Shown piece after piece: positions 3,255-46,912 of a DNA stretch of 64,000 nucleotides. The translations under genes were made by a program, and so were the position numbers. Within the stretch, counting starts at the first letter, position 1. Each line of letters starts with the position of its first letter. The stretch covers positions 59,096 to 123,095 of the IMG/VR virus record IMGVR_UViG_3300029305_005988. One strand, written 5' to 3'. The DNA is from a virus. Taxonomy: Duplodnaviria; Heunggongvirae; Uroviricota; Caudoviricetes. The notes below the pieces were generated by a model, which saw only the letters and a list, made by a program, of their open reading frames with translations, did not search any database and had not been told where the DNA came from.

Positions 3255-3290
3255 ACTTGACATTTTCCCGATTGTATGGTATAATAATAA
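3255..3290 (+). promoter_or_regulatory. early promoter (TTTGTGCAAC box, TTGACA, TGGTATAAT)
   Basis: cttgacattttcccgattgtatggtataat. Confidence 0.5.
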
Positions 3291-3447
3291 TGTCAAGAGG
3301 GGAACCTCGTGCGGAGAAAACAGTGGCAAACATAGACTTGGAAAGCAGTAACCTTTGTGCGCACAAGGATAAACACAGAAACAAACGGTCTACACTACTA
3401 GGCGAGTATCGGAGATAAGAAAAATAGTTGCAAATATTTTTCGAAAA

Positions 3448-3482
3448 CCTCTTGACAAAACTACATACTTGTGGTATAATAT
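3448..3482 (+). promoter_or_regulatory. early promoter
   Basis: cctcttgacaaaactacatacttgtggtataat. Confidence 0.55.
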
Positions 3483-3595
3483 AAGTGTGAAAGAGAGGTA
3501 AACACTTATGATTATTGAAAATATCATTATGGCTACTTTATATATCATTTTAGGAATGGGAATTGAAGAAGTTATAAGGGAGATAATGGGAAAAA

Positions 3596-3778
3596 ATGAT
3601 TAAATGTCCAAATTGCGGTAGCACCGCACAACCCGAGCCTTTTGAGGTACAATATCATGAAGATGGTTGGACTATATATGTAGAGCGTTGGTATCGTTGT
3701 GGCTGTGGACACGGCTTTGTTACCTCTACAACCTACGAAAGTGATGGAGATGAGGAAATTATAGATGCGTGCATTTAG
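3596..3778 (+). CDS. zinc-ribbon protein (60 aa; CPNCG...CGCG); terminates at TAG (would extend 5 codons to TGA if TAG is sense)
   Basis: ORF, Cys pairs; stop is TAG, which is otherwise unused as stop in this window. Confidence 0.45.
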   Translation: MIKCPNCGSTAQPEPFEVQYHEDGWTIYVERWYRCGCGHGFVTSTTYESDGDEEIIDACI

Positions 3779-4019
3779 AACCTTTTTCAACCTTGACCGC
3801 CCTTATGAGTTCGATATCACAGACCTCACCGCCTTAATTTATACAATATGCGCCATAGGCGGTATGATGGGCGCAAACATGACAATACTATGGTGCATTG
3901 GCGCAACAATCGCAACCGCTTTCTGTTGGGAAGCGCGCAAAATCAACCTTGTAGTTCTCAATCTCGCCCTTTGGGTGATGAATATGTGGAACTTATTTCA
4001 AATGATAATCGGAGGTTAA
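3765..4019 (+). CDS. small membrane protein (84 aa)
   Basis: hydrophobic ORF overlapping previous stop. Confidence 0.45.
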   Translation: MRAFRTFFNLDRPYEFDITDLTALIYTICAIGGMMGANMTILWCIGATIATAFCWEARKINLVVLNLALWVMNMWNLFQMIIGG

Positions 4020-4177
4020 TATGTGGAAAATTAGAGTACACACAATAGATTGTCAAAGGGGATTTTATCTTACTCCAACTTTTAAAACAGAAGAAGAAGC
4101 AGTTGCCTATGCAGTAAAAACAGATGTTGCTTGGCGATTTAACGCCTACTGCACCTATGAGCAGAAAGGAGAATAAT
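4020..4177 (+). CDS. hypothetical small protein (52 aa)
   Basis: ATG directly after previous stop, RBS aggaggttaat. Confidence 0.35.
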
Positions 4178-4339
4178 ATGAAAGTCAAAACCTACATTTA
4201 TGAAGCCAATGGCTTTATTAAAGGTCGCATGGTAGCCAAAAACAAACGCGAGGTAAAAAAGCAAATTCTTAAAACCGTTGCACTGTTTTGTCCTACAAGA
4301 GGACTTGAATATATGAAGATTAAGAGGATAAAAGAATGA
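4178..4339 (+). CDS. hypothetical small protein (53 aa)
   Basis: ATG after RBS aaaggagaataat. Confidence 0.4.
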   Translation: MKVKTYIYEANGFIKGRMVAKNKREVKKQILKTVALFCPTRGLEYMKIKRIKE

Positions 4340-4554
4340 AAGCAAAATTCATACTTGAAAAAGACGAAAGTCACAAGATAAGACAAATGCTTGACGATAT
4401 TCCAATCGACCTTTGCAGATATGTAACTTGTCCCGACGAACTTGACGGTAACTGCGATGCCTGCCCCTTGCTTGCCATTTCAGACAGTTGGAGCAGAGGA
4501 TTGGAACTCCTTTGCGACCAGACAAGCGAAGCATTAAAAAAGATTGAGGGGTAA
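4336..4554 (+). CDS. hypothetical protein (72 aa)
   Basis: ORF, ATGA overlap. Confidence 0.45.
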   Translation: MKAKFILEKDESHKIRQMLDDIPIDLCRYVTCPDELDGNCDACPLLAISDSWSRGLELLCDQTSEALKKIEG

Positions 4555-4558
4555 AGAT

Positions 4559-4759
4559 ATGGAATATGTATATCTTATTTCCGACGAGGTTCACGGACTT
4601 TATTGTATTTGTGCAAACAAAGATAAGGCAACCGAAATTGTAGACGATATTAGTCATGGTTGTTATGGATTGCCAAAAGAAACCAAACCCGACTATGATA
4701 ATGAAAATTGTTATGGTTATGATGGTGCGGCTTCTTGGAAAAGAGTAGAGGTGGTTTAA
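4559..4759 (+). CDS. hypothetical protein (~66 aa)
   Basis: ORF after RBS gaggggtaaag. Confidence 0.4.
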   Translation: MEYVYLISDEVHGLYCICANKDKATEIVDDISHGCYGLPKETKPDYDNENCYGYDGAASWKRVEVV

Positions 4760-4800
4760 ACCACCTCTTTTCTTTGGTCGGCACGGCGGCGCCCGTCGCC
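4751..4800 (+). terminator. tandem terminators
   Basis: ggtggtttaaaccacc+tctttt and cggcacggcg..cgccctgccg+ttttt. Confidence 0.5.
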
Positions 4801-4885
4801 CTGCCGTTTTTGTGCAAATTGCACAATTCCACACCTTTTTTCGCCAAATGTTTGTGCAACTTGACGAAAAGAAATTTCCCAAAAC

Positions 4886-4946
4886 CGCTTGACATTCACC
4901 GCCTTTTGTGGTATAATATTATCGTAGTCAAGGGGCGAAAGGTTAA
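4886..4946 (+). promoter_or_regulatory. promoter + conserved leader (copy 1 of duplicated tggtataatattatcgtagtcaaggggcga)
   Basis: near-identical to 7222-7280. Confidence 0.5.
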
Positions 4947-4994
4947 CGGCAGAGAAAAACCGACCACCGCAACTCGAAAAAATTTTTCAAAAAC

Positions 4995-5035
4995 TTTTGA
5001 AAAACCCCTTGACAAATCATTCAAAGTATGATATA
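4995..5035 (+). promoter_or_regulatory. early promoter (cccttgacaaatc...tgatataat)
   Basis: seen. Confidence 0.5.
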
Positions 5036-5071
5036 ATATAAGAGCAGTAAGGAACAAGAGAGGAAAACCAA

Positions 5072-5509
5072 ATGACGATTTATTTTGATATGGACGGCAC
5101 TATTGCAGACCTCTATGGGGTACAAGGTTGGCTTGCTGACCTTGAAGCGCACAATCCTCGTCCGTATGAAGAAGCGCAAGTCATGCACAATATGTCCGCG
5201 CTTGCAAGAGCATTGAATACGGCACAGAGCAAGGGCGCACGCATAGGCATTATATCGTGGCTATCCAAGACCGCAACCGAGGACTATAACAAAGCGGTTG
5301 AAAAAGCCAAGCGCAAGTGGCTCAAAAAGCACCTTAAGTCCGTTCAGTTTGATGAAATCCATATCGTGCCGTATGGCACTCCAAAATCGTCCGTTGCCAA
5401 GAGCGTGGGCATACTGTTCGATGATGAGGAGCGCAACCGCGCCGAATGGAGTAAAGGACGCGCATATCCGCCCGAAAAAATCTTTGAAATTCTCAAAGAA
5501 ATTTCGTAA
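5072..5509 (+). CDS. HAD-superfamily 5'(3')-deoxyribonucleotidase (NT5C)-like
   Basis: N-terminal DMDGTIADL (DxDGT motif I) and ILFDDE motif. Confidence 0.55.
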   Translation: MTIYFDMDGTIADLYGVQGWLADLEAHNPRPYEEAQVMHNMSALARALNTAQSKGARIGIISWLSKTATEDYNKAVEKAKRKWLKKHLKSVQFDEIHIVPYGTPKSSVAKSVGILFDDEERNRAEWSKGRAYPPEKIFEILKEIS

Positions 5510-5608
5510 AACCTCTTGACAAATCCGTCAAGATGTGATATAATAATAATGTCGAGAGGGAGAGGAAGCAATCCCCTATGACAGAAAGAGAGGAAAAAGA
5601 AAAATCCA

Positions 5609-6346
5609 ATGAACATTCTTGTGTTTGACACCGAAACCGCTGGGTGCTGTACCCAAACTTTGTTAAATATCGGTTATTGCGTTGCCGATATTGACTTGAC
5701 CACATTCAAGTATCGCATACTCAAAGGTCGTGACTATCTTGTAGGCAAACACTACAAAAATCGTCTGTGGCTCTTGAACGATATGTTCGTCAAGGCAGAA
5801 AAACTTGCCAAGTTCGACTATAATGTTGAAAATGGCTCGGCAATTCTCCGCACCGAGAAGCAGATTTTCGAGCAAATGGCGCGCGATATTGACCGCTATG
5901 GTATTCAGTACGGCTTTGCGTATAACTGTCAATTTGACGAGGACAAATTCCGCAGAACCGCGACCGCGCTCAATCTCCTTAATCCGCTTGACAAAATCGA
6001 GGTTGTGGATATTTGGACGAACGCGCAACTTGCAATTTGCGCTACCGAGGACTATATCGCATTTTGCAACGAACACAATCTCCGTACCCCAAGTGGTAAG
6101 TATATCCCAACCTCTGTTGAGGGTGTAACCGCTTTCCTTAACAATGATAAAGAATTTGTTGAGGAACACACCGCGCTCTCCGATGTTCAATGGGAATTGC
6201 GTATCCTTTGCGAATTGGGTAAGAGAGGTTGTAATATCTTCCAAGTACCCACGCATAATGGCTGTCTCACTCCCGAAGGTGAATGGGTATTCCCATTCCA
6301 CAAGCGCAAGACCGAATTTGACGATGTAACCACGGGGAGAGAATAA
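5609..6346 (+). CDS. DEDDh (DnaQ-like) 3'-5' exonuclease
   Basis: Exo I VFDTETAG, Exo II YNCQFDEDKF, Exo III HTALSDV. Confidence 0.7.
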   Translation: MNILVFDTETAGCCTQTLLNIGYCVADIDLTTFKYRILKGRDYLVGKHYKNRLWLLNDMFVKAEKLAKFDYNVENGSAILRTEKQIFEQMARDIDRYGIQYGFAYNCQFDEDKFRRTATALNLLNPLDKIEVVDIWTNAQLAICATEDYIAFCNEHNLRTPSGKYIPTSVEGVTAFLNNDKEFVEEHTALSDVQWELRILCELGKRGCNIFQVPTHNGCLTPEGEWVFPFHKRKTEFDDVTTGRE

Positions 6347-6377
6347 TCTCTCCCCACAAAAAAAATAAAAAAATTTT

Positions 6378-6415
6378 CAAAAACCTATTGACAAATACCA
6401 AAAAGTATGGTATAA
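6378..6415 (+). promoter_or_regulatory. early promoter
   Basis: ttttcaaaaacctattgacaaataccaaaaagtatggtataat. Confidence 0.55.
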
Positions 6416-6491
6416 TATAAATGTAAACAAGAGGGAAACCTCAAAATAAAAATAATATGGGTTGCGACCTACCGCAAGAGAGGAAAAAATT

Positions 6492-6902
6492 ATGGCAGAA
6501 ATCAAGGAAATCAAGTACACGCAGAAGCAGATGTTCGAAGCAATCCTCGCAGAGACTGACCGCACCGACGAAATTGGCGGTATTCCGTCCGCAGTTTTCA
6601 AGGCGTTCGCAGAGAAGAAAATTGCGCAGTTGGAGAGTAAGTCGGGCAAGACGAGCGCAAAGCGCACCGAGGAACAGGACGCTTTCATGGAAATTATCCG
6701 CGATGTTCTCGCAGAGTATCCCGATGTCAAGGGTATGCAGTGCGGCGCGGTCGCCAAGGACGAGCGTATTGCTTCGTTCAAGTGGGCAGACGGCAAGGAA
6801 ACCTCGGCGCAGAGAGTGTCGGCTATGCTGAAGAAGTTGGCCGACTGCGGTGATGTGATTAAGACCACGGACAAGAAAGTCACCTACTTTCGCCTTGCAT
6901 GA
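6492..6902 (+). CDS. small-protein paralog family member (MAEIK...; family with 7475-7903 and 16508-16897)
   Basis: shared N-terminal MAE(I/K)K, central DILAEV..G.LTVG, C-terminal K.V.Y(F/Y).LA. Confidence 0.55.
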   Translation: MAEIKEIKYTQKQMFEAILAETDRTDEIGGIPSAVFKAFAEKKIAQLESKSGKTSAKRTEEQDAFMEIIRDVLAEYPDVKGMQCGAVAKDERIASFKWADGKETSAQRVSAMLKKLADCGDVIKTTDKKVTYFRLA

Positions 6903-6929
6903 GTGAGGGGCGCAAGCCCCTCTACATAT

Positions 6930-6999
6930 CGACGGGTAGTTTAGTGGTTAAAACAGTCCGTAGGAAGGACAGAGGTGAGTTCGAGGCTCACACCGTCGC
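6930..6999 (+). ncRNA. tRNA-like element (perfect T-arm gtgag/ttcgagg/ctcac, 6/7 acceptor; anticodon unclear, possibly AGG)
   Basis: cloverleaf-like fold seen by eye; no CCA. Confidence 0.3.
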
Positions 7000-7070
7000 A
7001 GAGCATTAAATCCAAAACCCCCTATGCGCAAGGAGCGGTGAGAAAGTGAGAATGCTCAACCCATGGGATA

Positions 7071-7138
7071 GACCTCTGCGACGGCAGAGGTCTTTTTTCT
7101 TTCGTCGGCTCAGTGGCGGTCGCCACTGAGCCGTTTTG
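7071..7138 (+). terminator. tandem terminators
   Basis: gacctctgcgacggcagaggtc+tttttt and cggctcagtggcggtcgccactgagccg+tttt. Confidence 0.65.
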
Positions 7139-7221
7139 TGTGTTTTTATGCAAATTGCACAATTTTTCCGCCAAAATCTGCCTAAATTTTGTGCAAATTA
7201 TTTTCCCATTTTCTATTGACA

Positions 7222-7280
7222 AATTTTCATTTTTGTGGTATAATATTATCGTAGTCAAGGGGCGAGGGTGAGTTAAAACC
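7222..7280 (+). promoter_or_regulatory. promoter + conserved leader (copy 2 of duplicated element)
   Basis: ttgacaaattttcatttttgtggtataatattatcgtagtcaaggggcgaggg. Confidence 0.5.
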
Positions 7281-7374
7281 TCGAAAAAAATCTCCTCATT
7301 CTTCAATGTGAAACAAATGCGATAAAGTAGCATTGAGAATAGTATCGCAAAAAATTTTTGAAAAACTTTTCAAA

Positions 7375-7412
7375 AACCCCTTGACAAAAGCCACGAAATG
7401 TGGTATAATATA
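7375..7412 (+). promoter_or_regulatory. early promoter
   Basis: ccccttgacaaaagccacgaaatgtggtataat. Confidence 0.55.
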
Positions 7413-7474
7413 AGTGTAGTAAGGGAGAGCCACTCCCCACTAACAAAAAATAAAAATAAAGAGAGGTAGAAAAA

Positions 7475-7903
7475 ATGGCAGAAAAGAAGATTACCAAGAG
7501 AGAGAAGAATGAACTCCTTATCGCCGTACTTAACGGCAGAGTTCCCACCGAGGACGAGAAGAATATGCTTATCGAGCATATCACCCACGAGAACGAACTC
7601 CTTGCTCGTAAGGGTAGCAAGTCCGCAACCGCAACCCCTGCACAGAAGGACGCGCTTGCCGTCAGCGAGATTATCAAGGATATTCTTGCCGAGGTCGAGG
7701 GTAAGGGTTTGACCGTAGGCGCAATCCTTAAGGACGAGCGCATCAAGTCCTATGTGCGCCACAATGGAGAGGGTGTGTCCTCGCAGATGGTCACCTCTAT
7801 CTTCTCCAAGAACCCCAAGGATTTCGTGCGTACCGTCGAGAAGAAGGTCGCATACTACGCCCTCGCTTATGGTGAGGTCGTAGACGAGGGTGAGGGGGAT
7901 TAA
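7475..7903 (+). CDS. small-protein paralog family member
   Basis: see 6492-6902. Confidence 0.55.
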   Translation: MAEKKITKREKNELLIAVLNGRVPTEDEKNMLIEHITHENELLARKGSKSATATPAQKDALAVSEIIKDILAEVEGKGLTVGAILKDERIKSYVRHNGEGVSSQMVTSIFSKNPKDFVRTVEKKVAYYALAYGEVVDEGEGD

Positions 7904-7944
7904 CCCCCCTCTCCCCACGGAGAAAAATTTTTTCAAAAAGTTTT

Positions 7945-7985
7945 ACCAAACCTCTTGACAAATAGCCAAAGGTATGGTATAATAT
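7945..7985 (+). promoter_or_regulatory. early promoter
   Basis: cctcttgacaaatagccaaaggtatggtataat. Confidence 0.55.
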
Positions 7986-8019
7986 ATATGTCAAGAGGAT
8001 AGAAAGAGAGGTAAACAGT

Positions 8020-8445
8020 ATGGCAAGTATGTATACCCCCTACACCTTAAAAGGTGGCAAGGTGGTCAATGTGCCGAATAAGGCGGTCGCCAATCTGCAA
8101 GCACAGTTGAAACTGTCAAGAGCCGAAGCGGTTGAGTTGTGGCTTTATGACGAGGGATATATCGAGTGTCCCGAAGCAGACGAGTTGACCGCCAAGGCAA
8201 AAGAGAATAAAGTATCTCATGGGGCGCGCGCCGAGAATAAGCAGAAAACGCAGAGAGAGCGCGTGGTGAAAGAGGACAAGGTCAAGGAAGCAATTATCCA
8301 AGCGGTAGCCGATATGCTCCCCAACCTCAATGCCGAGAATGTGATTATTGAGAAAAAGGGAAAACTTATCACCTTTACCGTGGGTGAGGATAAATTCAAG
8401 TTTGACCTTATCCGTCAGCGACCGCCCAAGGAAAGCAAGGGGTGA
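8020..8445 (+). CDS. hypothetical protein (141 aa, charged)
   Basis: ORF with RBS agagaggtaaacagtatg. Confidence 0.5.
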   Translation: MASMYTPYTLKGGKVVNVPNKAVANLQAQLKLSRAEAVELWLYDEGYIECPEADELTAKAKENKVSHGARAENKQKTQRERVVKEDKVKEAIIQAVADMLPNLNAENVIIEKKGKLITFTVGEDKFKFDLIRQRPPKESKG

Positions 8446-8485
8446 AAACCCCTTGCTACATAAAACGAAAGCGAGGAAGAAGAAA

Positions 8486-8695
8486 ATGGCTAAAACTATG
8501 GAATTTACTTGTCCCGAATGTGGCGAAGATATTTTCATTGACGAGGTTGATGCAACGGTTGAGGATATGGTTGCCTATATCAAAATGACTTGTTGCAGTT
8601 GTGGAGCAGAATGGACTGATACCTTTCGCTTGACCTATAACGGATACGCTATGGGCAGTGAAGTTTGGGATAAGAATGGAGAGAAAATCGTATGA
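8486..8695 (+). CDS. zinc-ribbon protein (69 aa)
   Basis: CPECG...CCSCG; RBS gaggaagaagaaaatg. Confidence 0.5.
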   Translation: MAKTMEFTCPECGEDIFIDEVDATVEDMVAYIKMTCCSCGAEWTDTFRLTYNGYAMGSEVWDKNGEKIV

Positions 8696-8928
8696 CGGCA
8701 TATGAAGAATTGAAAGCGTGGTGCGAGAAACACCTTGGAGATAAATATAGAATAGAGATAATACCTGAAACAACTGAATATTATACAACAATGTATATTC
8801 TCAAGGGTGAGGAAGAGATATTTTACGCCGCCTTTGATGCCGAAGAATATTTCATTGGAATGAGCAGTGCCACTTGGGACGAGTTCCAAGAACATATTGA
8901 ATTGGCAGAAAGAGAGGGAAAAATATAA
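8692..8928 (+). CDS. hypothetical protein (78 aa)
   Basis: ORF, ATGA overlap. Confidence 0.5.
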   Translation: MTAYEELKAWCEKHLGDKYRIEIIPETTEYYTTMYILKGEEEIFYAAFDAEEYFIGMSSATWDEFQEHIELAEREGKI

Positions 8929-8948
8929 GCGCCAAACGCACTAAAAGA

Positions 8949-8976
8949 AAACAGAGGGTAAAGCCCTCTGTTTTTT
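8949..8976 (+). terminator. rho-independent terminator
   Basis: cagagggtaaagccctctg+ttttttat. Confidence 0.65.
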
Positions 8977-8989
8977 ATCTGCACCAATC

Positions 8990-9210
8990 GCGTTCACATC
9001 TTGTTCACAATTCGACGGGTCGCTAGCCATCGGCTAGCCCCGACTTCCACATTCCACTACCATTCCATATATACGCGATCGAAAAATGGTTGTTTCAATT
9101 TCACTCTCATTTTCCCGCAAACCTAGACCCTTGCTCTATACCGGGCGCCTGAACTAGCGCGGGCCGCGGACAATCGCGAAAGCCCGTCTAAGGCCTAGAC
9201 TAGCACCTTC
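8990..9210. repeat. GC-rich palindrome/iteron-like non-coding block (gctagccatcggctagc, cgcgggccgcg, cctagac x2)
   Basis: local GC well above the flanks; palindromes seen directly. Confidence 0.4.
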
Positions 9211-20417: not shown

Positions 20418-20425
20418 TTCATATA

Positions 20426-20498
20426 GGGAATTAGTTTAACAGTAGAATGACTGTCTCCAAAACAGTAGGCTGCGGGGCAGCACCGTAATTCCCTGCCA
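20426..20498 (+). ncRNA. degenerate tRNA-like (Trp CCA-type anticodon arm, no canonical T-arm)
   Basis: acceptor gggaatt/aattccc 7/7, stem actgt/acagt, loop ctccaaa; T-region replaced by ctgcggggcag. Confidence 0.3.
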
Positions 20499-23075: not shown

Positions 23076-23201
23076 GGAGTGGTAGCCCAACAGGCAGAGG
23101 CAATGGACTTGTCTGATGTTCGGTAACCTAGACTGGGTCAGCACCAGTATCAGGCACCAAAAATCCATCAAGTGAGGGTTCGAATCCCTCTCACTCTACC
23201 A
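23076..23201 (+). ncRNA. 126-nt tRNA-like gene with 55-nt insertion in anticodon loop
   Basis: acceptor ggagtgg/tcactct, D-arm gccc..ggc, anticodon stem atgga/tccat enclosing 55 nt, T-arm gaggg/ttcgaat/ccctc, CCA; own upstream promoter. Confidence 0.4.
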
Positions 23202-23713: not shown

Positions 23714-23864
23714 CTTACCCGTGAGTAGTGGGGCTCTCGGCATCGCCAGTAAATAGCTACTCAAACTCCCAACGGTAGAGCAAATGACCAGAACTAGGAG
23801 TTAAAATAAACGAGACTAAGGATGTGCGGCTGACAACCTACTGTCATTACATATGCGAGTTTAG

Positions 23865-23939
23865 TTCAGAAGTAGAATACCGCTCTGATAAAGCGGGGGT
23901 GCTTGGGGCAGTACCAAGAATTCGCACCAAAACTCAAGA
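23865..23939 (+). tRNA. tRNA-Ile(GAT) with non-canonical T-loop ggcagta
   Basis: stem ccgct/agcgg loop ctgataa; acceptor gcgagtt/aattcgc; CCA. Confidence 0.55.
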
Positions 23940-26199: not shown

Positions 26200-26275
26200 G
26201 CTGTGATAATTCAATTGGGAGAAGAGCCGGCGTCAAGCAGGCTAGTTGTGGGTTCGAGTCCCACTCACAGGTCCA
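26200..26275 (+). tRNA. tRNA with UCA-centred anticodon loop (cgTCAag, G33) - opal-reading/Sec-like candidate or mis-parse
   Basis: acceptor 6/7 (G1-G72 mismatch); T-arm gtggg/ttcgagt/cccac; CCA; anticodon stem gccgg/caggc with one mismatch. Confidence 0.3.
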
Positions 26276-27656: not shown

Positions 27657-27812
27657 TAAAGAATTTAATTGATTTCTTAAAAAATTTATGATATAATAAA
27701 TATGTAAGATAAAGGCGATGCAATATAAGTAGCGAGAAACAAAGACACTCGCCGCTTCCATCAACAAATTCTCGATTCAAAATTGCTCGAAAGAGGTCGC
27801 TAATCGTAATAT

Positions 27813-27888
27813 TGGGTCTTCGCCTAAACGGTTAGGGCACAGGACTTTGACTCCTGCAGTCTAGGTTCGAATCCTAGAGACCCAGCCA
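27813..27888 (+). tRNA. tRNA-Gln(TTG)
   Basis: U1:A72, G73, tc-gcc D-arm (Gln-like); stem cagga/tcctg loop ctttgac; CCA. Confidence 0.6.
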
Positions 27889-27923
27889 AATATTGGAGGT
27901 TAGCCTAGTGGTCAGGCAGTCGG

Positions 27924-28392
27924 CTGTTTTAACTGACTTTAATCTTTAATGAAAAAAGATAGTGAACAGTAAGCAAATTGGCAATATTACCGAAGTATCT
28001 GTTATGCTTGAGTTTTTAAAATTAGGATATAATATTTTAACTCCTTATGGAGATTGCGAACGATATGATTTTGTTGCAGATATTAATCATAAATTTTATA
28101 AAATTCAAGTAAAAACAGCAAAAAAAGATAATGGTAAAATCGAATTTAATACAGCATCCACTCATTATGTAGATGGAAAATGTATTCATGACTCTTATAC
28201 AAAAGATGAAATTGATTACATTGCAACTTATTTTAATAATAAGTGTTATTTAATTCCAATTGAGGAATGTGGAAAGCGCTCTGCTTCAATTCGTTTTGAA
28301 GCTCCTAAAAATGGACAAACCAGAGGAGTTCGAATGGCAGAAGATTATGAGTTGGAGGAAGTAATTAAAAGATTAAACTGATGTTAAAGCAA
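27924..28392 (+). mobile_element. intervening element in tRNA anticodon loop (group I intron-like or novel) encoding PD-(D/E)XK-like nuclease
   Basis: only ~40 nt 5' and ~11 nt 3' of non-ORF sequence, too little for a canonical group I core. Confidence 0.4.
27962..28381 (+). CDS. putative PD-(D/E)XK-fold homing endonuclease (139 aa), paralog of 30291-30905
   Basis: GDCERYDFVADIN...KIQVK motif block conserved with paralog (GEDCRYDMIVDIN...RVQVK); lies inside split tRNA. Confidence 0.45.
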   Translation: MNSKQIGNITEVSVMLEFLKLGYNILTPYGDCERYDFVADINHKFYKIQVKTAKKDNGKIEFNTASTHYVDGKCIHDSYTKDEIDYIATYFNNKCYLIPIEECGKRSASIRFEAPKNGQTRGVRMAEDYELEEVIKRLN

Positions 28393-28653
28393 CCGACCTA
28401 CGGGAGTTCAATCCTCTCACTTCCAGCCAGTCGATTATCGACAAAAACCGTTATCATGAATTTGGCAGTTAAACTACCACCGACTCTAACAATTAGCACC
28501 CAGTATGCGGTCAAGTATTGAATATGAGGTATGTGGCTTAGTGGGAAACGGTATATCAAAGACGCAAAGTAAACTGCCGCTTGGATGATTTTTTCATGGT
28601 TTTCCTCCCTTCAACGGGTTTGGGCATTACCGTTAAAACAATGCCTTTAGAAT

Positions 28654-28730
28654 GTCAGTCTAGCCCAATTGGCAGAGGCACTAGTCTTAGGAACTAGTTA
28701 GTGTGGGTTCGACTCCCTCGATTGACACCA
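28654..28730 (+). tRNA. class I (short variable arm) tRNA with anticodon TAG (Leu codon CUA) - atypical
   Basis: stem ctagt/actag loop cttagga; acceptor gtcagtc/gattgac; T-arm ~gtggg/ttcgact/ccctc; CCA. Confidence 0.45.
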
Positions 28731-29419
28731 TGGATGCTACTTCCAAGCCGTAAGGTGAATGTAGCGGTTTTTACGATGAGGTTTTGACGGTTTTTCCAAG
28801 AGTCGTAATCCCCATAATATAATTATTAAAATAAATCGGCAACTCTTGGGTGTTGATGTACAAGTAGCACCATCAACCTCTCCTATGCGTTCCGTATATA
28901 AAGACTCGGAAGAGGTAACAGAGCGTAGGTGACTATACGGTATCAAGAGGCGGAATCCGTACGCGCGACGAGGCATGATGCGAAAAATCAAAAAGGTGGC
29001 AGCCTGCTCGAGAATATATGGTATTATAAATTTAATCGGTATCAATGTGGAAAGACACTGCCAAAGGTTGACAACCATTATGAGTTGTTGAAACAGAGAT
29101 ACTCGATATAAGTAAATAATCTTGATTACATTAAGTAGTTTGAGGCGATTACTACTGTGAAATGCAGAGTAGGCTTGAGAGAGCGCTCACGAACAAGAAT
29201 TGAAATCAAATGCTGAGAAGATCGTGGATTTCGTCCATCCGAAGCACAGAGTAGGATGCGATTAGCGACGAGGATGTGGTGAGGTTCTGGTAGACCAACC
29301 AATGGTGTCTAAGTCAGATGTAGATTGAAAGATGTAACGGTTATTTACTCGAATTGTGGAAGGTAGCAAATACCCGATGCCCAAAAGAAGAAGATATGCG
29401 GTTAGCTGACCTAAAGCTT

Positions 29420-29460
29420 CACCTCTTTATTGACAAAATAAAAAATTTTTGTTATAATAA
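29420..29460 (+). promoter_or_regulatory. promoter of GIY-YIG HEG (ttgacaaaataaaaaatttttgttataat)
   Basis: seen. Confidence 0.5.
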
Positions 29461-29539
29461 ATAAGTAATCGAAAGTTCATTGATAATTGCATAAGAAAAT
29501 ATATAAGACATCTATAAAAGAAGGAGTTGAATTTATTAT

Positions 29540-30176
29540 GGGTTTTATTTATAAAGTTACAAATAAAGTCAATGGTAAAGTTTATATTGGAAAAACTTTA
29601 GACTCTTCTATAGAGGAGCGCTTTAAAGAACATATTAAAGAAGCTAAAGTAAAACAATATAATCGACCTTTTCATCTGGCTTTAAATAAGTATGGAGCAG
29701 AAAATTTCATAATTGAAGAAATTGAGCAAATTCCTGCAAATGAATTAAGCAAAAGAGAAATATATTGGATTTCTTTTTATCATTCTTATATTCACGATCC
29801 AGTTTCAAACGGATATAATGCCACTAAAGGTGGCGAAGGATCGCTAGAATATGACTATGATAAAGTTATTGTAGAGTATCATAAAACACAAAGTATTACT
29901 CAAACAGCCAATAATTTAAAATGTTCTATATCTACAGTACAGAGAGCTATTCGAGAATATAATGTTCCCGTATATAAACAGCGCGCCTGTGGAGTTAAAA
30001 TTATTGGCTATAATGATATGGAAGAATTAACTTTTGATTCTATCCGACAAGCTGCTGAATTTTTATCAAAACGATTAAATAAAGATATGCAGACAATACG
30101 AAAGCGAATTACTTCTATTATTAATCATAAACCTAATCAAAAAGGGTATGGTTATTACTGGAAAGAACAAGAATAA
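29540..30176 (+). CDS. GIY-YIG homing endonuclease (no in-frame TAG)
   Basis: MGFIYKVTNKVNGKVYIGKT...ERFKEH...YWISFYHS...GYNATKGG; ORF track 29487-30176. Confidence 0.7.
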
Positions 30177-30228
30177 CTATATTTTCTTATGCAATTAAGT
30201 TGAACTTTTTAATATGCACCTGTCGCAT

Positions 30229-30919
30229 AGTGGCCGATTGCACTCGCCTTGTTCGTAAATTTAAGACTTCCTATAAAGGAGGTTGATATAATGAATGAGA
30301 CAAAGATTAAAGGTTTAACCACTGAGCTTCAATGTCAATTATTCTTTACTCAATTGGGTTATAATGTTAGTATCCCGTTAGGAGAAGATTGTAGATATGA
30401 TATGATAGTAGATATTAATGGCATACTCTTGCGAGTTCAAGTAAAACACGCAACTGTTGCAGAAAATGGTATTACTATTTCTACTCGTTCTACTCAATCT
30501 AACACTTCAGGATCAAAAAGTTTAACCTATAATAAGGAACAAATTGATTATTTTGCAACTTTTTATAATAACCAGTGTTATTTAATTAAAGTTGAAGAAT
30601 GTTCAACTCAAAAAACTTTAGCTTTTACTAAAATTCAACAAATGCAGAACTTCATTGATGATTTTTTGGCTGAAAAAGAAATTCAAAGAATCTTAAATGG
30701 GGAAGATGCTATAGAAGATACTGTAATAGCAAATGTATATCAATATGATTTGCGTGGCAACTTAATAGGAGCCTATTCAAGTGCCGTTGCAGCAGCTGAA
30801 AGTTTAGGAGATCGCTCTAAAAATTCTCATATTACCAAATGCCTTAATGGGCATAGGCAAACAGCATATGGGTATAAATGGAGCAGGACACTATTGAAGT
30901 CTTAAACATTATGATCAAA
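30229..30919 (+). mobile_element. intervening element in tRNA anticodon loop encoding nuclease ORF
   Basis: no G at predicted 3' splice position, so a group I assignment is doubtful. Confidence 0.35.
30291..30905 (+). CDS. putative PD-(D/E)XK-fold homing endonuclease with C-terminal DNA-binding tail (GYKW), paralog of 27962-28381
   Basis: conserved block with paralog; RBS ataaaggaggttgatataatg. Confidence 0.45.
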   Translation: MNETKIKGLTTELQCQLFFTQLGYNVSIPLGEDCRYDMIVDINGILLRVQVKHATVAENGITISTRSTQSNTSGSKSLTYNKEQIDYFATFYNNQCYLIKVEECSTQKTLAFTKIQQMQNFIDDFLAEKEIQRILNGEDAIEDTVIANVYQYDLRGNLIGAYSSAVAAAESLGDRSKNSHITKCLNGHRQTAYGYKWSRTLLKS

Positions 30920-31505
30920 GCGAGAGACCTTGTCCGCGTTGGTTCGAATCCAACTAGGTGCTCCATGGCGTCAAGAAGAAAACCTGCGCGTGGTGACGCT
31001 GCACGCTCTTACCCAGTGGCTAATTTCTTCATGCATCACCTCCTTTCGATGCAAAAAGGCGGCGCACGCCTGTAAGTCCCCAAGCTATCTTGGCTAAAGT
31101 GTTGCGGGGAGCATACCCTGACAAACCTCTGTGGCTGGGTTATAAGCTCGGAAAATAGACACTTCTCCATTTAGTGAGAAACCGTTAGTGTCACTAAGCG
31201 AGGGTGGCGGGAAAAACCTTCGCTTCTTCCCATTTAAACTTGATATACGACAGGTGAAGTCGATAAAACTGCCTTGGTAGGGTAGCGCCCTACGGAAGAG
31301 ACGATAGAGCGCAAGAGGGCGTCCCAAGATTATCAAGTACAATTTATATTAGCTTAAGAGAGCCTTTGTCCCAAACACAGCGCTCCGTCAAAAGAAACCG
31401 TTTAGCACGGACTCGCAAGAGATAGTACTCGGTAGGGTTGGGAAAAGCGTGGATACAATTAGCTACTCCACGGGAAATTTCAATTGACAATCTTAAGCGC
31501 CTTCT

Positions 31506-31580
31506 GCAGGTGTCGTATAATGGCTATTACCTCTGCCTTCCAAGCAGATGATGGGAGTTCGATTCTCCCTACTTGCTCCA
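31506..31580 (+). tRNA. tRNA-Gly(TCC)
   Basis: stem tctgc/gcaga loop cttccaa; T-arm gggag/ttcgatt/ctccc; CCA. Confidence 0.6.
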
Positions 31581-31657
31581 GCCCTTTGGGCGACATTTTT
31601 CTACCCTTCCTTTCTGCTTTACCGCGCGCTGTTCGTTGGCGCGCGGTAATTGAACAT
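31581..31657 (+). promoter_or_regulatory. perfect 10-bp hairpin taccgcgcgc..gcgcgcggta between tRNAs (processing site?)
   Basis: seen. Confidence 0.35.
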
Positions 31658-31734
31658 GGTGATGTACCCGAGTGGACTAAGGGCGCGCTCTGCAAAAGCG
31701 TTGTGCGTTGATTCGAATTCAACCATCACCTCCA
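31658..31734 (+). tRNA. tRNA-Cys(GCA)
   Basis: acceptor ggtgatg/catcacc; stem gcgct/agcgt loop ctgcaaa; CCA. Confidence 0.6.
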
Positions 31735-31736
31735 TA

Positions 31737-31765
31737 TAGTCACTCTTAAGAGTGGCTTTTTTCTT
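31737..31765 (+). terminator. rho-independent terminator ending tRNA array
   Basis: cactcttaagagtg+gcttttttc. Confidence 0.65.
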
Positions 31766-31888
31766 TTTATTCTGTGCGGAGCGCCAAGGCTCGTATTTTG
31801 AAATAAAAAGGTGGTTTTAGATATTTTGTATTGAAATTTTCAAAATTATATGTTATAATTTATTAAAGAATAATAAGAGGTAATTGAT

Positions 31889-42220: not shown

Positions 42221-42319
42221 TGGGGGGTCGCTTAATGGTCATAGCAGCGGTCTCTAAAACCGCCAGAGCCTACGGGTCTGCTCCGTAGTATGTGGGTTCG
42301 AGTCCCACCCCCCCAGCCA
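42221..42319 (+). tRNA. amber-suppressor tRNA(CUA), Gln-type identity, with 28-nt extra (variable) arm
   Basis: stem gcggt/accgc loop ctCTAaa; U1:A72, G73, tc-gct D-arm as in tRNA-Gln; variable arm ctacgg-gtctgct-ccgtag hairpin; T-arm gtggg/ttcgagt/cccac; CCA. Confidence 0.6.
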
Positions 42320-43049: not shown

Positions 43050-43901
43050 ATGACTTATACTCTAAAAAATGGTGAGACTATTGAATCTATACCAATTGGA
43101 CGTTCCTCTGTGATTATAGGAGAAAAAAGTCCAAGTGGAATGCTAACAGTTTGTGATCGAGGCCCTGCTCCTATTAGCGGGAGAGGCGCCACCGTAATCT
43201 GTCAATGCTAGTGCGGAAAATATACTCTTATTAAATTAAATGAGTTGCGAACAGGTAATACTAAATCTTGTGGTTGTTATGCACAAGAAAAAGCAAAAGA
43301 AAATGGTAAATATGTAGGCTCTTTACCTAAAAAAGCAAAAGATTATACACTTATAGATAATCCTTTTTATACTTTTATTCAAAGAACAGATAAAAAAGAT
43401 ATTTCAAATAGTTTCTTTTGGATAGTACAGTGTAAAAGATGCGGCAAACAATATGAAGAAGTGCCTTCTCAAATTATTTCTACCACTCGAGCACGAGGCA
43501 ATAATCCTTGTAGTTGTTGGAAACATTTAAGTAAAGGAGAGCAAAAGATCATAAATCTGCTTTTAAATAACAATATTTCCTTTTCACAACAAGTGACTTT
43601 TAAAGATTGCCTTTCTCCACTAGGGAACCCTTTAAAATTTGATTTTTTTATTGAACAAAAGTATTTAATTGAATTTGATGGTGAGTAGCATTTTTTACCT
43701 CAACAATTTGGAAATAACGAATCTGGAGAAGAAAAATTAAAGCTTACTCAAGAATACGATGCAATTAAAAACCAATGGTGTAAAAATAATGGAATTCCGC
43801 TAATAAGAATTCCTTATACTCATTACAGTCAATTAAATATTAAAGATTTATTATTAGAAACAAGTAATTTTATATTAAAGGAGAAAATAAATGCCGAATA
43901 A
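43050..43901 (+). CDS. Zn-finger + Vsr/DUF559-like (PD-(D/E)XK) endonuclease, HEG-like; 2 in-frame TAG (43209, 43686)
   Basis: RBS aaaaggagatgaataaaaatg; ...VICQC*CGKY...KFDFFIEQKYLIEFDGE*HFLPQQFGN...; ORF 43245-43688 is the middle segment. Confidence 0.5.
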
Positions 43902-45171
43902 AATTTATAATGAAGATAGTACGCAACATATATCTCCTCGAGAGTTTACACGAAAAAGACCTGGTACCTATTGTGGTTCAACCGAGTATAGCACACAGCT
44001 TATTCGAGAGCTATTCGCCAATGCTTTAGATGAACACAATATAGGCCATGGTAATGTAATTTCAATCGAGGCTGATACAAAAAAGAACTTGTATACGGTT
44101 ACAGACTTAGGACAAGGCTTTATCCCTGGCGCGCCAAGAGAAAATGGGGAAACAATGTTTTCAGAATGTTTCTCGGTTATTAATACTTCAGGCAAGTATG
44201 ATGATGCTGATGATTCGATCTATGGTGGAAGTGCTCTAGGACTCAATGGTATAGGCATGAAGTTAGTCTGTTACCTTTCAAGCTGGTCTCAAGCTACAAC
44301 AACCAATGGCAGCGGCAAGAGAGAAACAATTACCTATAAAGATGGTTTGTTTGAATCGCGTCAAATTACCGACGAAAAGAAAGATATTCACGGTACAACA
44401 ATTAGTTATCAACCAGATCCTCAATTCTTCCAGCATCAAGAAGCAAACTTTGACGAGTTGAGAAAGATGTTTACCGACATCGCCGCACTTTGCCCCATGC
44501 TTACTATTGAACTTACTGTTGACGGAAAAAAAGAAATATTCCACTCTTCAAGAGGTTTAAATGACTTGATTGATGCAAAAGTTGGTGATAATGAAATTCT
44601 TTCAAATCGTTTTATTGCGCGTAGAGAGTCGGGCGCAGATCTCTTTGATATTTGCTTAACTTATACTTCTAATTATTCAGAAGATGTAACGGGTTATGTT
44701 AATTTTGGTTTAACTGAAAGCGGCGTTCATATGACGGCTTTGAGAACTAATTTAACAAGACTAATTAATAAATTTGCGAATGATAAAAAGATGTTTAAAG
44801 CAGGAGAGTCAAATCTTACTGGACAGGAGCTCTCTGAAGGACTTGTAATTATTTTCAATCTTAAAGCAAAAAAGGTTGCTTATGATAGCCAGTCAAAAGT
44901 AAGAGTTGTTGACATTGATAAGACATTGATTAATCAGACTCTAAGTGAAGACTTTGCTCAATGGCTTGAGTCTAATCAAAAGGATGTTAAAATTATTATT
45001 GACAAAGCGCTAAGTGCTCGTAGAGCAAGAGAGGCTGCTAAAAAGGCGCGCGACGCGGCTCGAGGCGACAAAAAGAAAAAGGAAAAGGCGCTTAAGTTTG
45101 ACTCTAAACTAGCAGATTGTTATTCAAAGGTTCGCGCCAACTGTGAGATCTATGTAACTGAGGGTAAGTGA
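43891..45171 (+). CDS. gyrB: DNA gyrase/topo II subunit B, exon 1 (GHKL ATPase + transducer), ends inside TOPRIM motif
   Basis: GHKL ATPase motifs; ...CEIYVTEG then K-stop from intron. Confidence 0.8.
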   Translation: MPNKIYNEDSTQHISPREFTRKRPGTYCGSTEYSTQLIRELFANALDEHNIGHGNVISIEADTKKNLYTVTDLGQGFIPGAPRENGETMFSECFSVINTSGKYDDADDSIYGGSALGLNGIGMKLVCYLSSWSQATTTNGSGKRETITYKDGLFESRQITDEKKDIHGTTISYQPDPQFFQHQEANFDELRKMFTDIAALCPMLTIELTVDGKKEIFHSSRGLNDLIDAKVGDNEILSNRFIARRESGADLFDICLTYTSNYSEDVTGYVNFGLTESGVHMTALRTNLTRLINKFANDKKMFKAGESNLTGQELSEGLVIIFNLKAKKVAYDSQSKVRVVDIDKTLINQTLSEDFAQWLESNQKDVKIIIDKALSARRAREAAKKARDAARGDKKKKEKALKFDSKLADCYSKVRANCEIYVTEGK

Positions 45172-46273
45172 AAACTATTGCCCGAATCCTTTTTACCATT
45201 AATCAGTGGGGTCACAATTATTGTGGCTAACGGGGAAAGCTGACCATTACACAGATATGTCAAAATCTGTTTAGGTGAAGTCAATCCCGTGGCAAAATTT
45301 TAAAATTTTTAGGTCAAATCTTGATAAATTTCTTACTCTCACTTTCATATATAAATAGAAGGAGACAGAGTACTTCTAATATATTTGAAATAAGGAGAAT
45401 AATAATGATTGGAATTTACAAGTACACAAACAAAATTAATGGGAAACACTATATTGGATAGAGCATTAATTTAGAAATGCGCAAATATGCACATAAATCT
45501 TCTGCTTTTAATGAAAATGCTAAAGATTATAATGCTCAATTTCATCAAGCAATTCGTAAATACGGTTGGGATAATTTTGATTATGAAGTAATCGCAGAGT
45601 TAACCCCAGAAGAATATACGAAAGAAGGACTTGATGCCTTAGAAAGATATTTTATTAAATATTACGACTCTTTTCATAATGGCTATAATGCCACCGAAGG
45701 CGGAGATGATAATCCACTTAGGGCGCAAAAAGGCTCTGCCAATGGGCGTGCGCTTTTAACAGAAGAGGATGTTATTTATATTAGAGAATGTTATAATGCA
45801 CATATTCCTTTTAGAGAGGTTTATGCAGAGTATCAAGATAAAATATCTAAAAGAGGGCTTCAAAAAGTATGGTGGTTTGATACATGGAAAGATATCTATC
45901 CAGAGTATCATACAGAAGAAAATAAAAAATGGCATGCTACAAAAGCAAAAGCTAATGCTTCAGAGGTTGCCGCAAATAATAAACGCAGTTTTACCGAAGA
46001 AGAAGTTAAAAAAATGAGAGAAGAGTACGACAATGGAATGTCACCAAAGCAAATTTGGCTAAGATATGCACCAGAGAAAGCTTGGTCGACAGTTTATAAT
46101 GTTGTAACAAGACAGACCTATAAAGATATTTAAAATAAGCTGTATCGACTATCCCGAGTGAGATCGGGAGTAGAAATGTTATTGATACGCATTTCGAAAT
46201 AGAGGACACGATGATGACCTGACAAGTCGGAGTGAAGAGATAGTCAGTGCCTATAGAAATATAGGAGCACATG
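45166..46273 (+). mobile_element. group I-like intron in gyrB carrying GIY-YIG HEG
   Basis: 5' exon ends ggT, intron ends atG; splice restores YVTEG|DSASGN = TOPRIM EGDSA motif; candidate P1 pairing gggu/gccc. Confidence 0.55.
45405..46133 (+). CDS. intron-encoded GIY-YIG homing endonuclease with in-frame TAG at 45459
   Basis: MIGIYKYTNKINGKHYIG*SINLEMRKYAH...GYNATEGG; ORF 45477-46133 is its body. Confidence 0.7.
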
Positions 46274-46912
46274 GATAGTGCGTCTGGAAACCTTAAGTCA
46301 GCTCGAAACAATGAGTTCCAGGCTGTAATGCCAGTTCGAGGTAAAATCCTTAATTGTCAAAAGAATACGCTGGATAAGATCCAAAAGAACGCAGAGATTA
46401 TGACTATGATTGAGGCATTTGGTCTTAAAGCAGACCCTAAGACGATGAAACTTACCTATGACAAAGACTCACTGCGTTATGGCAAGATTATTATAGCTGC
46501 TGATGGAGATGCTGATGGTAGCCATATTCGAAACCTGTTTTATACTTTTATCTGGAACTTCTGTCCGCAACTTATTCAAGAGGGATATGTGTATGCTCTT
46601 GTAGCGCCGCTCTATAAGATTACGATGGGTAAAGATACTTATCTATATTTAAGAGACGATAAAGAATTGGCTGAGTTCCAAGAGAAAAATAGAGGAAAAA
46701 AGTATCAGGTCAATAGATTTAAGGGATTAGGTGAAATGTCAGAGGACGAGACTGAAATTCTTGTAGACCCAGGCTTAAGAGTGCTAAATCAGGTTGCGGT
46801 TGAAGAAGCAAAGAAAGCAGATGTCTTATTTGATCAATTGATGGGCGTTGGGGTTGCAGCGAGAAAGAAGTTTATTCAGGATCATAGCAAGGAGGCTAAA
46901 TATGGAGTATAA
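46271..46912 (+). CDS. gyrB: DNA gyrase/topo II subunit B, exon 2 (TOPRIM + tail)
   Basis: DSASGN...PVRGKILNCQKNT...IIIAADGDADGSHIRNL ~ GyrB EGDSAGGS...PLKGKILNVEKAR...IMTDADVDGSHI. Confidence 0.75.
   Translation: MDSASGNLKSARNNEFQAVMPVRGKILNCQKNTLDKIQKNAEIMTMIEAFGLKADPKTMKLTYDKDSLRYGKIIIAADGDADGSHIRNLFYTFIWNFCPQLIQEGYVYALVAPLYKITMGKDTYLYLRDDKELAEFQEKNRGKKYQVNRFKGLGEMSEDETEILVDPGLRVLNQVAVEEAKKADVLFDQLMGVGVAARKKFIQDHSKEAKYGV

Follow-up and report, generated by a model that had tools for sequence, protein, structure and literature searches.

To our knowledge, the only tRNA introns recognised so far in bacteria and phages are self-splicing group I ribozymes. Splicing of tRNAs by proteins is seen as a trait of archaea and eukaryotes, whose tRNA introns form a bulge-helix-bulge (BHB) structure and are spliced by proteins, EndA or Sen together with RtcB or Trl1; archaeal rRNA introns with LAGLIDADG homing endonucleases exist as well. 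Bacterial 23S rRNA genes can contain intervening sequences that are cut out by RNase III without religation, and the fragmented rRNA still works. Insertion of a homing endonuclease gene (HEG) can also leave protein-coding genes in pieces, as with nrdA/mobE of Aeromonas phage Aeh1. Here, we describe an interrupted tRNA gene in a phage-like sequence (Caudoviricetes; IMG/VR record IMGVR_UViG_3300029305_005988, positions 59,096-123,095), analysed as a window of 64,000 nt to which all coordinates refer unless another sequence is named. The gene, a tRNA-Thr(UGU) at 30216-30965, lies in an array of 24 tRNAs detected by ARAGORN and several more detected only by Rfam. The element that interrupts it is a mobile intervening sequence without a ribozyme, a HEG cassette inserted between nucleotides 36 and 37 of the tRNA.

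Several described systems come close to this arrangement. In Synechocystis sp. PCC 6803, the tRNA-fMet gene contains a group I intron of 655 nt, with a 150-aa open reading frame (ORF; 450 nt) and a ribozyme of about 205 nt (PMC1995217). The DNA target of the endonuclease I-Ssp6803I is the pseudo-palindromic anticodon arm of the tRNA gene (PMC3384342). A free-standing homing endonuclease, SegB, is found in the tRNA cluster of phage T4 (PMC13096335). Lak megaphages carry "enigmatic introns" in their tRNAs, first noted in 2019 and left without an explanation there (Devoto et al. 2019, PMC6784885). A search of a limited collection of literature found no paper on endonuclease-bearing, ribozyme-less tRNA introns.

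When introns were allowed, ARAGORN called a tRNA at 30216-30965 whose anticodon loop contains a 665-nt insertion. The minimum free energy (MFE) fold of the whole 749 nt regained the acceptor, T and anticodon stems across the insertion (z = −3.8). Since the intron mode of ARAGORN also gives false joins of neighbouring tRNAs, an empty site was sought in IMG/VR with a pattern for the anticodon arm that allowed any anticodon. The search returned seven uninterrupted genes with the same unusual body (3-bp D stem, 13-nt variable arm); all seven have the anticodon TGT and the pairs G1-C72 and C2-G71, and six end in U73-CCA. The IMG/VR contig L200, which is collinear with window 26.2-33.9 kb at ~80% identity, contains the uninterrupted tRNA gene GCACCTGTCGCATAGTGGCCGATTGCACTCGCCTTGTAAGCGAGAGACCATGTCCGCGTTGGTTCGAATCCAACCAGGTGCTCCA. 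By blastn, L200 2720-2767 corresponds to window 30205-30252, and L200 2768-3309 to window 30918-31507. The alignment thus ends at 30252 and restarts at 30918, which places the insertion exactly at 30253-30917, at 36|37 (CTTGT^AA). The joined window halves differ from the contiguous L200 gene at 2 of 85 nt and, once the insert is removed, are recognised by ARAGORN as an 85-nt tRNA with a full cloverleaf.

The split gene is therefore a class-II-shaped tRNA with the Thr anticodon UGU, interrupted at 36|37. Its 5' exon (30216-30252, plus strand, as are all parts of the locus; 97.9% identical to the L200 allele) comprises the acceptor strand, the 3-bp D arm, the anticodon stem strand CTCGC and loop nucleotides 32-36 (CTTGT). 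The 3' exon (30918-30965, from ARAGORN and the L200 alignment) supplies A37 and A38, the stem strand GCGAG, the 13-nt variable arm, the T arm, the acceptor strand, U73 and CCA. An earlier note, written from the sequence alone, had recognised two halves of a real class II tRNA with a 13-nt variable arm, and the intronless L200 ortholog bears this out. It had set the start at 30217, one nucleotide too late, had estimated the insertion at ~690 nt instead of 665 nt, and had read the junction as CTT...AAA, where the alignment gives CTTGT^...^AA. The exact junction, the Thr identity, the pairing of intron and anticodon, the known tRNA targeting of I-Ssp6803I and the free-standing relatives near tRNAs were absent from that note.

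The host tRNA is odd in that a Thr anticodon and a Thr-type acceptor (G1-C72, C2-G71, U73) are combined with a class II body. Its variable arm is 13-14 nt long and its anticodon stem Ser-like, and the tRNA was found in at least 10 phage contigs (including L199-L205 and L008-L011). The Thr identity is predicted from the anticodon and the acceptor elements. Two other identities were considered and rejected. ARAGORN's own call, an opal-suppressor or selenocysteine tRNA(UCA) with the junction CTT|CAAA, is ruled out by the TGT anticodon of 7/7 intronless alleles. For a tRNA-Ser(UGA) with the junction CTTG|AAA, the anticodon arm does match that of phage tRNA-Ser(TGA), but the true ortholog has TGT and the three Thr-type acceptor elements. 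No intact Thr tRNA was found in the window, in which both tRNA(UGU) genes (23076-23201 and 30216-30965) are interrupted.

The insertion encodes a predicted homing endonuclease of 204 aa (30291-30905), with a Shine-Dalgarno sequence, AAGGAGG (30276-30282), 8 nt 5' of the ATG. Residues 1-135 form a PD-(D/E)XK domain (Pfam PF11645, PDDEXK_5; 71.7 bits against a cut-off of 26.1 bits, E = 8e-20). Residues 149-197 form a NUMOD1-type tail (E = 2.5e-6), the C-terminal DNA-binding extension that the earlier note had described. The protein matches I-Ssp6803I (PDB 2OST) at E = 7e-8, with YDMIVD...RVQVK aligned to SYDLVFD...KVQVK. The catalytic motif D...(D/E/Q)xK is kept, and E12, D37, D41, Q50 and K52 are invariant in 26 homologs. 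An AlphaFold2 model (mean predicted local distance difference test score of 86.5) gave four 2OST chains as the best Foldseek matches (E = 1e-10, template modelling score 0.75-0.77), followed by archaeal Hjc resolvases, and the tail resembled the NUMOD region of I-HmuI. Sequence and modelled structure thus agree on an I-Ssp6803I-type PD-(D/E)XK nuclease with a restriction-endonuclease-like fold.

A sister element lies upstream on the plus strand. Here, a tRNA-Asn(GUU) at 27894-28429 (ARAGORN, Pfam) is split at 36|37 (CTGTT^AA) by a 462-nt insert (27929-28390) with a 139-aa ORF (27962-28381). The fold of the whole precursor regained the acceptor, T and anticodon stems (z = −3.4), and L200 has an intact tRNA-Asn(GTT) at this position. 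The 139-aa protein scores 122.5 bits against PF11645, matches 2OST at E = 1e-6 and is 36% identical to the 204-aa protein (E = 8e-26), so that both the paralogy of the two ORFs and their assignment to I-Ssp6803I-like nucleases, as proposed earlier, hold.

Relatives were collected from 40 IMG/VR loci encoding one (the unbiased set) and from 80 metagenome loci, which together yielded 77 unique inserts, mainly from rumen and gut. The 204-aa protein has 349 homologs at E ≤ 1e-3, mostly of ~205 aa and with the same two domains. In 29 of the 40 IMG/VR loci, the ORF lies inside a split tRNA, and contig ends cut two more. The insertion point is 36|37 in all 77 unique inserts (register fixed), in agreement with the earlier suggestion of a family that targets tRNA anticodon loops. 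The hosts are tRNAs for Thr(UGU) (~50), Ser(GCU) (~6), Gly(UCC) (5), Pro(UGG) (4), Asn(GUU) (3) and Lys(UUU) (3), with single cases of Gly(GCC) and Thr(AGU) and one of Val(UAC) assigned by eye. The family ORFs, nearly always intact, start ~25-35 nt past the 5' junction and stop 6-16 nt short of the 3' junction. Among uninterrupted phage tRNAs with the same anticodon arm as the class I hosts, 98 of 122 carry TGT, and they start with GC and end in GC-U73-CCA as the hosts do. A tRNA(UCA) is thereby ruled out for the class I arm too, and by these features the class I hosts appear to be genuine tRNA-Thr. A search of representative bacterial genomes returned no full-length family member, only matches to the NUMOD tail, and a megablast comparison of the locus with the phages in GenBank gave no match.

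The same arrangement occurs in a cultured phage, Enterococcus phage EFP01 (Schiekvirus, NC_047796). Its gp109, annotated as a "hypothetical protein" and 55.7% identical to the 139-aa ORF of the sister element, lies inside an unannotated tRNA-Asn (~105242-105777 of NC_047796) split at CTGTT^AA. At the position of the insert, ~29 related genomes, including EFDG1, have an intact annotated tRNA-Asn-GTT. The joined EFP01 exons are identical to the tRNA-Asn-GTT of EFDG1, which provides a second exact empty site, this one between cultured phages. Free-standing relatives of the nuclease are located beside tRNA genes in Pectobacterium phage My1, Vibrio phage phi-pp2 and the loci L042 and L045; the window ORF is not intergenic in this way, lying inside the tRNA at 36|37. 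Two further loci look like intermediates between the intron-like and the free-standing arrangements. In L050 (1467-1960), the nuclease gene and paired ends sit in a lone anticodon-arm hairpin (TCTGC TTTGT^...^AA GCAGA) between two tRNAs, without a tRNA body, and in L051 (1373-1960), the endonuclease gene comes after an intact tRNA-Thr and before a 3' tRNA remnant.

In every case examined, the ends of the intron pair with each other and with the exon, forming a rod on the anticodon stem. From the stem outwards, the rod begins with the native 32.38 mismatch and the U33-A37 pair, and nucleotides 34, 35 and 36 then face intron positions −1, −2 and −3. Above the anticodon, the helix continues to about level 10-11 and is followed by a conserved 1x2 internal loop (5' A, 3' CA) and a helix of 5-11 bp that closes the ORF loop. 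In the window, the 5' strand of the lower helix, P-b, consists of tRNA nucleotides 33-36 (TTGT) and intron nucleotides 1-6 (TCGTAA) at 30249-30258, paired in the MFE fold with 30909-30918. This 3' strand, which is supported by the fold and by relatives, is TTATGATCA plus A37, with the terminal TCA opposite U34, G35 and U36 (A-U, C-G and U.U). The internal loop, placed by predicted structures and conservation, has A at 30259 and CA at 30907-30908; the bases conserved around it are AAA[C/T] on the 5' side and [G/A]CATT on the 3' side. In the upper helix, P-c, the 5' strand TTTAAGACTTC (30260-30270) is a perfect 11-bp complement of the 3' strand GAAGTCTTAAA (30896-30906), and the fold also pairs the two. 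The CTTCC of the former may pair with the Shine-Dalgarno sequence instead, and the latter holds the stop codon TAA (30903-30905). Because the rod overlaps both the ribosome-binding site and the stop codon, its formation should be incompatible with translation, and the two would therefore compete.

Across 73 distinct homologous introns, pairing was canonical in 66-97% of sequences per level; with the 3' partner slid by 1-3 positions, the value was mostly 10-50%. Levels 1-3 (nucleotides 34-36 against intron −1 to −3) were canonical in 79-93% and covaried with the anticodon: the terminal intron triplet is ACA or UCA in hosts with UGU, AGC with GUU and GCU, AAA with UUU, and GG(T) with UCC. The count was 194 G.U pairs versus ~3 A.C mismatches outside the native 32.38 position. 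Because an inverted repeat in DNA would give G.U and A.C equally, this comparison indicates that the rod is selected as RNA. Terminal inverted repeats in the DNA and a target-site duplication were accordingly ruled out, the complementarity tolerating G.U and not A.C, and the 3' end being the reverse complement of the anticodon and not a direct copy. On the rod, the junctions are found on opposite strands, separated by three levels and symmetric about nucleotide 35.

The locus resembles the I-Ssp6803I intron in its nuclease family (PF11645, with 2OST as the best match in both sequence and fold), its tRNA host, its anticodon-loop site and its mobility with presence/absence polymorphism. It differs from that intron in having ~50 nt outside the ORF (family median 36 nt), no omega-G, no covariance-model match and a −1 base that is not always U. 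Further differences are the phage host, the NUMOD1 tail added in the window ORF, and ends that pair with the anticodon and not as P1-P9. With archaeal and eukaryal tRNA introns, it shares the lack of a ribozyme, an intron beside the anticodon and paired with it, an extended anticodon stem, cuts that would fall on opposite strands a few bp apart, the possible presence of a nuclease gene inside, and a need for ligation. Unlike those introns, it is located at 36|37 and not 37|38, in a bacterial or phage setting, with no EndA homolog among the scanned window ORFs. Anticodon-intron pairing is a feature that BHB introns have too, but in place of two 3-nt bulges around a 4-bp helix there is a continuous helix, with 1x1 mismatches (32.38 and 36.−3) flanking a 3-bp segment.

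Lak introns are similar in several respects: they occur in tRNA arrays of gut phages as anticodon-loop insertions without a recognised ribozyme, vary in presence between phage variants, and include a tRNA-Thr(TGT) host. As described in the main text, however, they are short, and the portions of that report considered here describe for them no endonuclease ORF, 36|37 rule or anticodon-intron helix. Like free-standing HEGs, the family consists of selfish nuclease genes that exploit conserved tRNA clusters; unlike them, its genes lie inside the tRNA at a fixed nucleotide, with their ends base-paired to the exon. The intervening sequences of 23S rRNA offer another parallel, with complementary ends and a long stem, an ORF in some cases, no ribozyme and a sporadic distribution. 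The 2-nt mid-stem stagger of RNase III, however, does not fit the tRNA junctions. RNase III was rejected as the sole excising enzyme on this reasoning, since its cut near mid-stem would not leave a 7-nt loop. Ligation would also be required here, unlike in 23S rRNA, because a tRNA nicked in the anticodon loop does not work. A mobile anticodon-loop intervening sequence with an I-Ssp6803I-type nuclease was already known; described here is a large, coherent set of ribozyme-less phage tRNA inserts with one position, one nuclease family and pairing to the anticodon.

DNA homing is very probably the means by which the element spreads. By homology to I-Ssp6803I, which is reported to leave a 3-nt 3' overhang, the nuclease would recognise the pseudo-palindromic anticodon-arm DNA of uninterrupted alleles and cut it near 36|37, and repair of the break by recombination would copy the cassette in. 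Homing at uninterrupted alleles would account for the exact presence/absence polymorphism among close relatives, and targeting of anticodon-arm DNA for the insertion point shared by six or more tRNA species. The exact empty sites in L200 and in ~29 Schiekvirus genomes provide indirect evidence for it.

Two unrelated tRNA-like fragments flanking an ORF, joined by chance or by misassembly, might be suspected given the many false joins of adjacent tRNAs made by ARAGORN in intron mode. This has already been refuted by the L200 and EFP01 evidence, with a contiguous, collinear tRNA gene only 2/85 nt away from the joined halves and the architecture recurring in 77 independent sequences and in the finished genome of a cultured phage; its probability is negligible. 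Self-splicing RNA, either as a group I core overlapping the ORF or as a new small ribozyme made of the conserved ends and the tRNA body, would agree with an insertion at 36|37 after a U, which is a classical site of group I introns in tRNAs. It would agree too with the origin of the nuclease family's founding member, whose gene is part of a group I intron in the anticodon loop of a tRNA (PMC1995217). The space available argues otherwise: the non-coding part of the insert is limited to 38 nt before the ORF and 12 nt after it (family median 36 nt), against ~205 nt in Synechocystis and the ~200 nt or more of structured RNA expected of a group I intron, and only a few non-coding bases are conserved. 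Nor is there an omega-G, as the insert ends in ATCA and that of the sister in AAGC, and among the 77 inserts the final base is A in 42, C in 16, T in 12 and G in only 7. The −1 base is U36 in the window, and T in 59, C in 10, G in 6 and A in 2 of the family inserts, being C or G in the Gly and Pro hosts. Rfam matches at E ≤ 10 in window 27700-31800 were to tRNAs only, with no Intron_gpI core, and 18 related loci gave no intron or self-cleaving ribozyme at E ≤ 1, so that permissive thresholds yielded no ribozyme family in 19 loci. The sensitivity of Rfam for group I is imperfect and its negative not absolute, because bacterial sequences are missing from the Intron_gpI seed (10.1101/2020.01.27.920355); the shortage of space and the missing omega-G argue independently of it. 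The insert is thus unlikely to be a group I intron, as the earlier note had suspected from the missing terminal G, or for that matter a group II intron or a known small ribozyme, and self-splicing of either kind seems highly improbable.

The remaining choice is between a tRNA restored by proteins and a tRNA gene that is simply dead. In the former case, which we tentatively favour over the latter and would put somewhat below an even chance, the rod, in which nucleotides 33-36 of the transcript pair with A37 and the last three intron bases and which stacks on the anticodon stem, would be the substrate of protein enzymes. These would cut it at both junctions, and an RNA ligase would join U36 to A37, giving a working tRNA. 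Candidate cutters are the element's own nuclease, RNase P, an RNase III-like enzyme or another host enzyme. The sealing step might fall to a host ligase or to a cassette 7 kb downstream (37636-39942, plus strand), which encodes an Rnl5/NgrRnl-like RNA ligase with an N-terminal OB domain, a PNK-like P-loop kinase and a calcineurin-like metallophosphoesterase (Pfam RNA_ligase, PHA02142 OB, AAA_33 and Metallophos) and adjoins a sigma-70 gene (36738-37619). The ligase matches PDB 5COT (NgrRnl) at E = 3e-26, and the kinase matches the CthPnkp kinase domain and T4 PNK at E = 2e-8 to 4e-7. Excision and ligation by proteins would be consistent with a rod that is specific, tailored to its host and reaches exactly both junctions, with the complete cloverleaf kept in ~31 of 40 unbiased IMG/VR loci and decayed in only 1-2, and with a window that has no uninterrupted Thr tRNA. 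The complete heal-and-seal repair set encoded in the window also points this way, although we only infer its link to the element. Other ribozyme-less anticodon-loop insertions are present in the same phage group, at window 23076-23201 and in Lak phages (PMC6784885). The wider proposition, that bacterial viruses carry ribozyme-less tRNA introns spliced by proteins alone and spread by a homing endonuclease, appears possible but falls short of an even chance.

Several points weigh against protein splicing. We know of no enzyme in bacteria or phages that excises such an intron, and no homologs of EndA (PF01974), RNase III or RtcB were found in a scan of ~50 window ORFs, which covers only 64 kb of the genome. 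The junctions lie inside a near-continuous helix and not in bulges as in BHB introns. No ORF-less derivative of the intron was present among 304 loci and the window (1.7 Mb of related sequence). The L050 rod shows that the structure can persist without a tRNA to restore, and intact halves could reflect rapid turnover of the element. Among the organisms named for 357 records matching the ligase type, there was no Enterococcus phage, EFP01 itself not having been searched. Large phages also commonly carry RNA repair cassettes, with which they counter anticodon nucleases (PMC7824862). The rival reading is a selfish insertion that is never spliced, in which a nuclease gene settles in its own recognition site, so shielding its carrier from cleavage, and inactivates a dispensable phage tRNA. 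The tRNA body and rod would then serve as a scaffold that stabilises, processes or regulates the nuclease mRNA in a highly transcribed tRNA array, and the intact halves would result from frequent re-invasion of intact alleles. The sporadic occurrence (1 of ~30 Schiekvirus genomes; absent from L200), the free-standing relatives beside tRNA genes in L042, L045, My1 and phi-pp2, the rod and anticodon arm without a tRNA body in L050 and the tRNA remnant in L051 are in line with it. So are the nearly always intact ORFs without ORF-less introns, a pattern expected of an actively spreading selfish gene, the window gyrB, which is also split by an intervening ORF, and the lack of any known splicing enzyme. 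A complete cloverleaf at most of the unbiased loci is harder to reconcile with dead genes, as is the interruption of both tRNA(UGU) genes of the window with no intact Thr tRNA found. The conserved length of the rod, its conserved internal loop and its pairing, tailored to the anticodon as far as the junctions, also exceed in specificity the needs of a generic stabilising stem. On balance, an unspliced selfish insertion is possible but somewhat doubtful.

A second mobile insertion, separate from the intron and absent from L200, is located 40 nt upstream of the interrupted gene. It is a free-standing GIY-YIG homing-endonuclease cassette with NUMOD1 and helix-turn-helix domains (29432-30204, plus strand; ORF 29487-30176), identified by Pfam and by a gap in the L200 alignment. 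The other tRNA(UGU) gene of the window (23076-23201) is a class I Thr-like tRNA with the loop CTTGT...AA and an insertion of ~49 nt that resembles a tRNA-like minihelix, with a 7-bp stem (GTCTGAT/ATCAGGC), a hairpin (CTGG-GTCAGCA-CCAG) and an ACCA end. An exact-match search of IMG/VR returned no relatives of this tRNA. The insertion resembles the tRNA-Thr(TGT) intron "that may encode a tRNA" reported for Lak phages (PMC6784885). If the inner element were processed by RNase P and at its 3' end, the exons would be left with 3'-OH and 5'-phosphate ends, fit for an ATP-dependent RNA ligase. Similar inserts or nested tRNAs were seen in L049 (395-530), L053 (1145-1293), L247 (846-994), L045 (353-497), L219 (81-213) and L253 (2092-2228). 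In L001 (2197-2342) and L002 (5740-5863), tRNA-Glu-like genes have anticodon-loop insertions of 49-71 nt with a T-arm-like hairpin inside, flanked by CTTTCAAG...CTTGAC.

Elsewhere in the array, the tRNAs at 20425-20495 (CCA) and 23855-23926 (GAT) were detected by Rfam only and missed by ARAGORN. Their T-loops read GGCAGCA and GGCAGTA instead of TTCRANN, and the same 7-nt loop occurs in the small 23076 insert, L002 and L049. Between the tRNAs, GC-richer blocks free of ORFs (28430-28650, 28737-29480 and 30966-31500) are 76-82% conserved in L200 and gave no Rfam match at E ≤ 10. They may be unclassified large structured RNAs, as the equivalent part of the EFP01 array contains a ROOL RNA (L304:3433-4019). 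Two putative suppressor tRNAs were noted: a 99-nt, class-II-shaped tRNA at 42221-42319 with the loop CTCTAAA (CUA), also present in L274, L193, L235 and L280, and a UCA tRNA at 26200-26275 with an irregular anticodon arm.

Reading TAG or TGA as sense raises ORF coverage in the first 18 kb of the window, a hint that stop codons are recoded in part of the genome; recoding of the window as such was set aside, ORF coverage under alternative codes giving no clear picture and 32-64 kb reading well in the standard code. Positions 1-9000 have few long standard-code ORFs, a GC content of 0.42-0.47, above that of the coding parts, and a positive AT skew, and could hold recoded genes or non-coding RNA. 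The gyrB gene is in two pieces (43891-46912), one encoding the ATPase and transducer regions (43891-45171) and the other Toprim and the C-terminus (46271-46912), with a 218-aa ORF (45477-46133) of no Pfam family between them. It could be a gene left in pieces by another mobile insertion, or one with an intron that has no detectable ribozyme. A protein of 829 aa (32561-35050) matches the shoulder domain of the Major Vault Protein (E = 2e-24) as well as a vault repeat, an uncommon feature in a phage.

The phages concerned, dozens from gut and rumen and one grown in the laboratory, thus either splice tRNAs with proteins or tolerate broken tRNA genes. If the insert is spliced, a tRNA splicing pathway has gone unrecognised in bacteria or their viruses, and phage and bacterial RNA ligases would gain a physiological substrate; the system would be the counterpart, in the bacterial world, of tRNA splicing in archaea and eukaryotes, with a homing endonuclease as its vehicle. 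If it is not spliced, a homing endonuclease colonises a gene family by destroying its genes and puts the tRNA body to use as an RNA scaffold. In both cases, such genes escape standard annotation, as with gp109 of EFP01, and this phage with its host E. faecium makes the splicing question directly testable in the laboratory.

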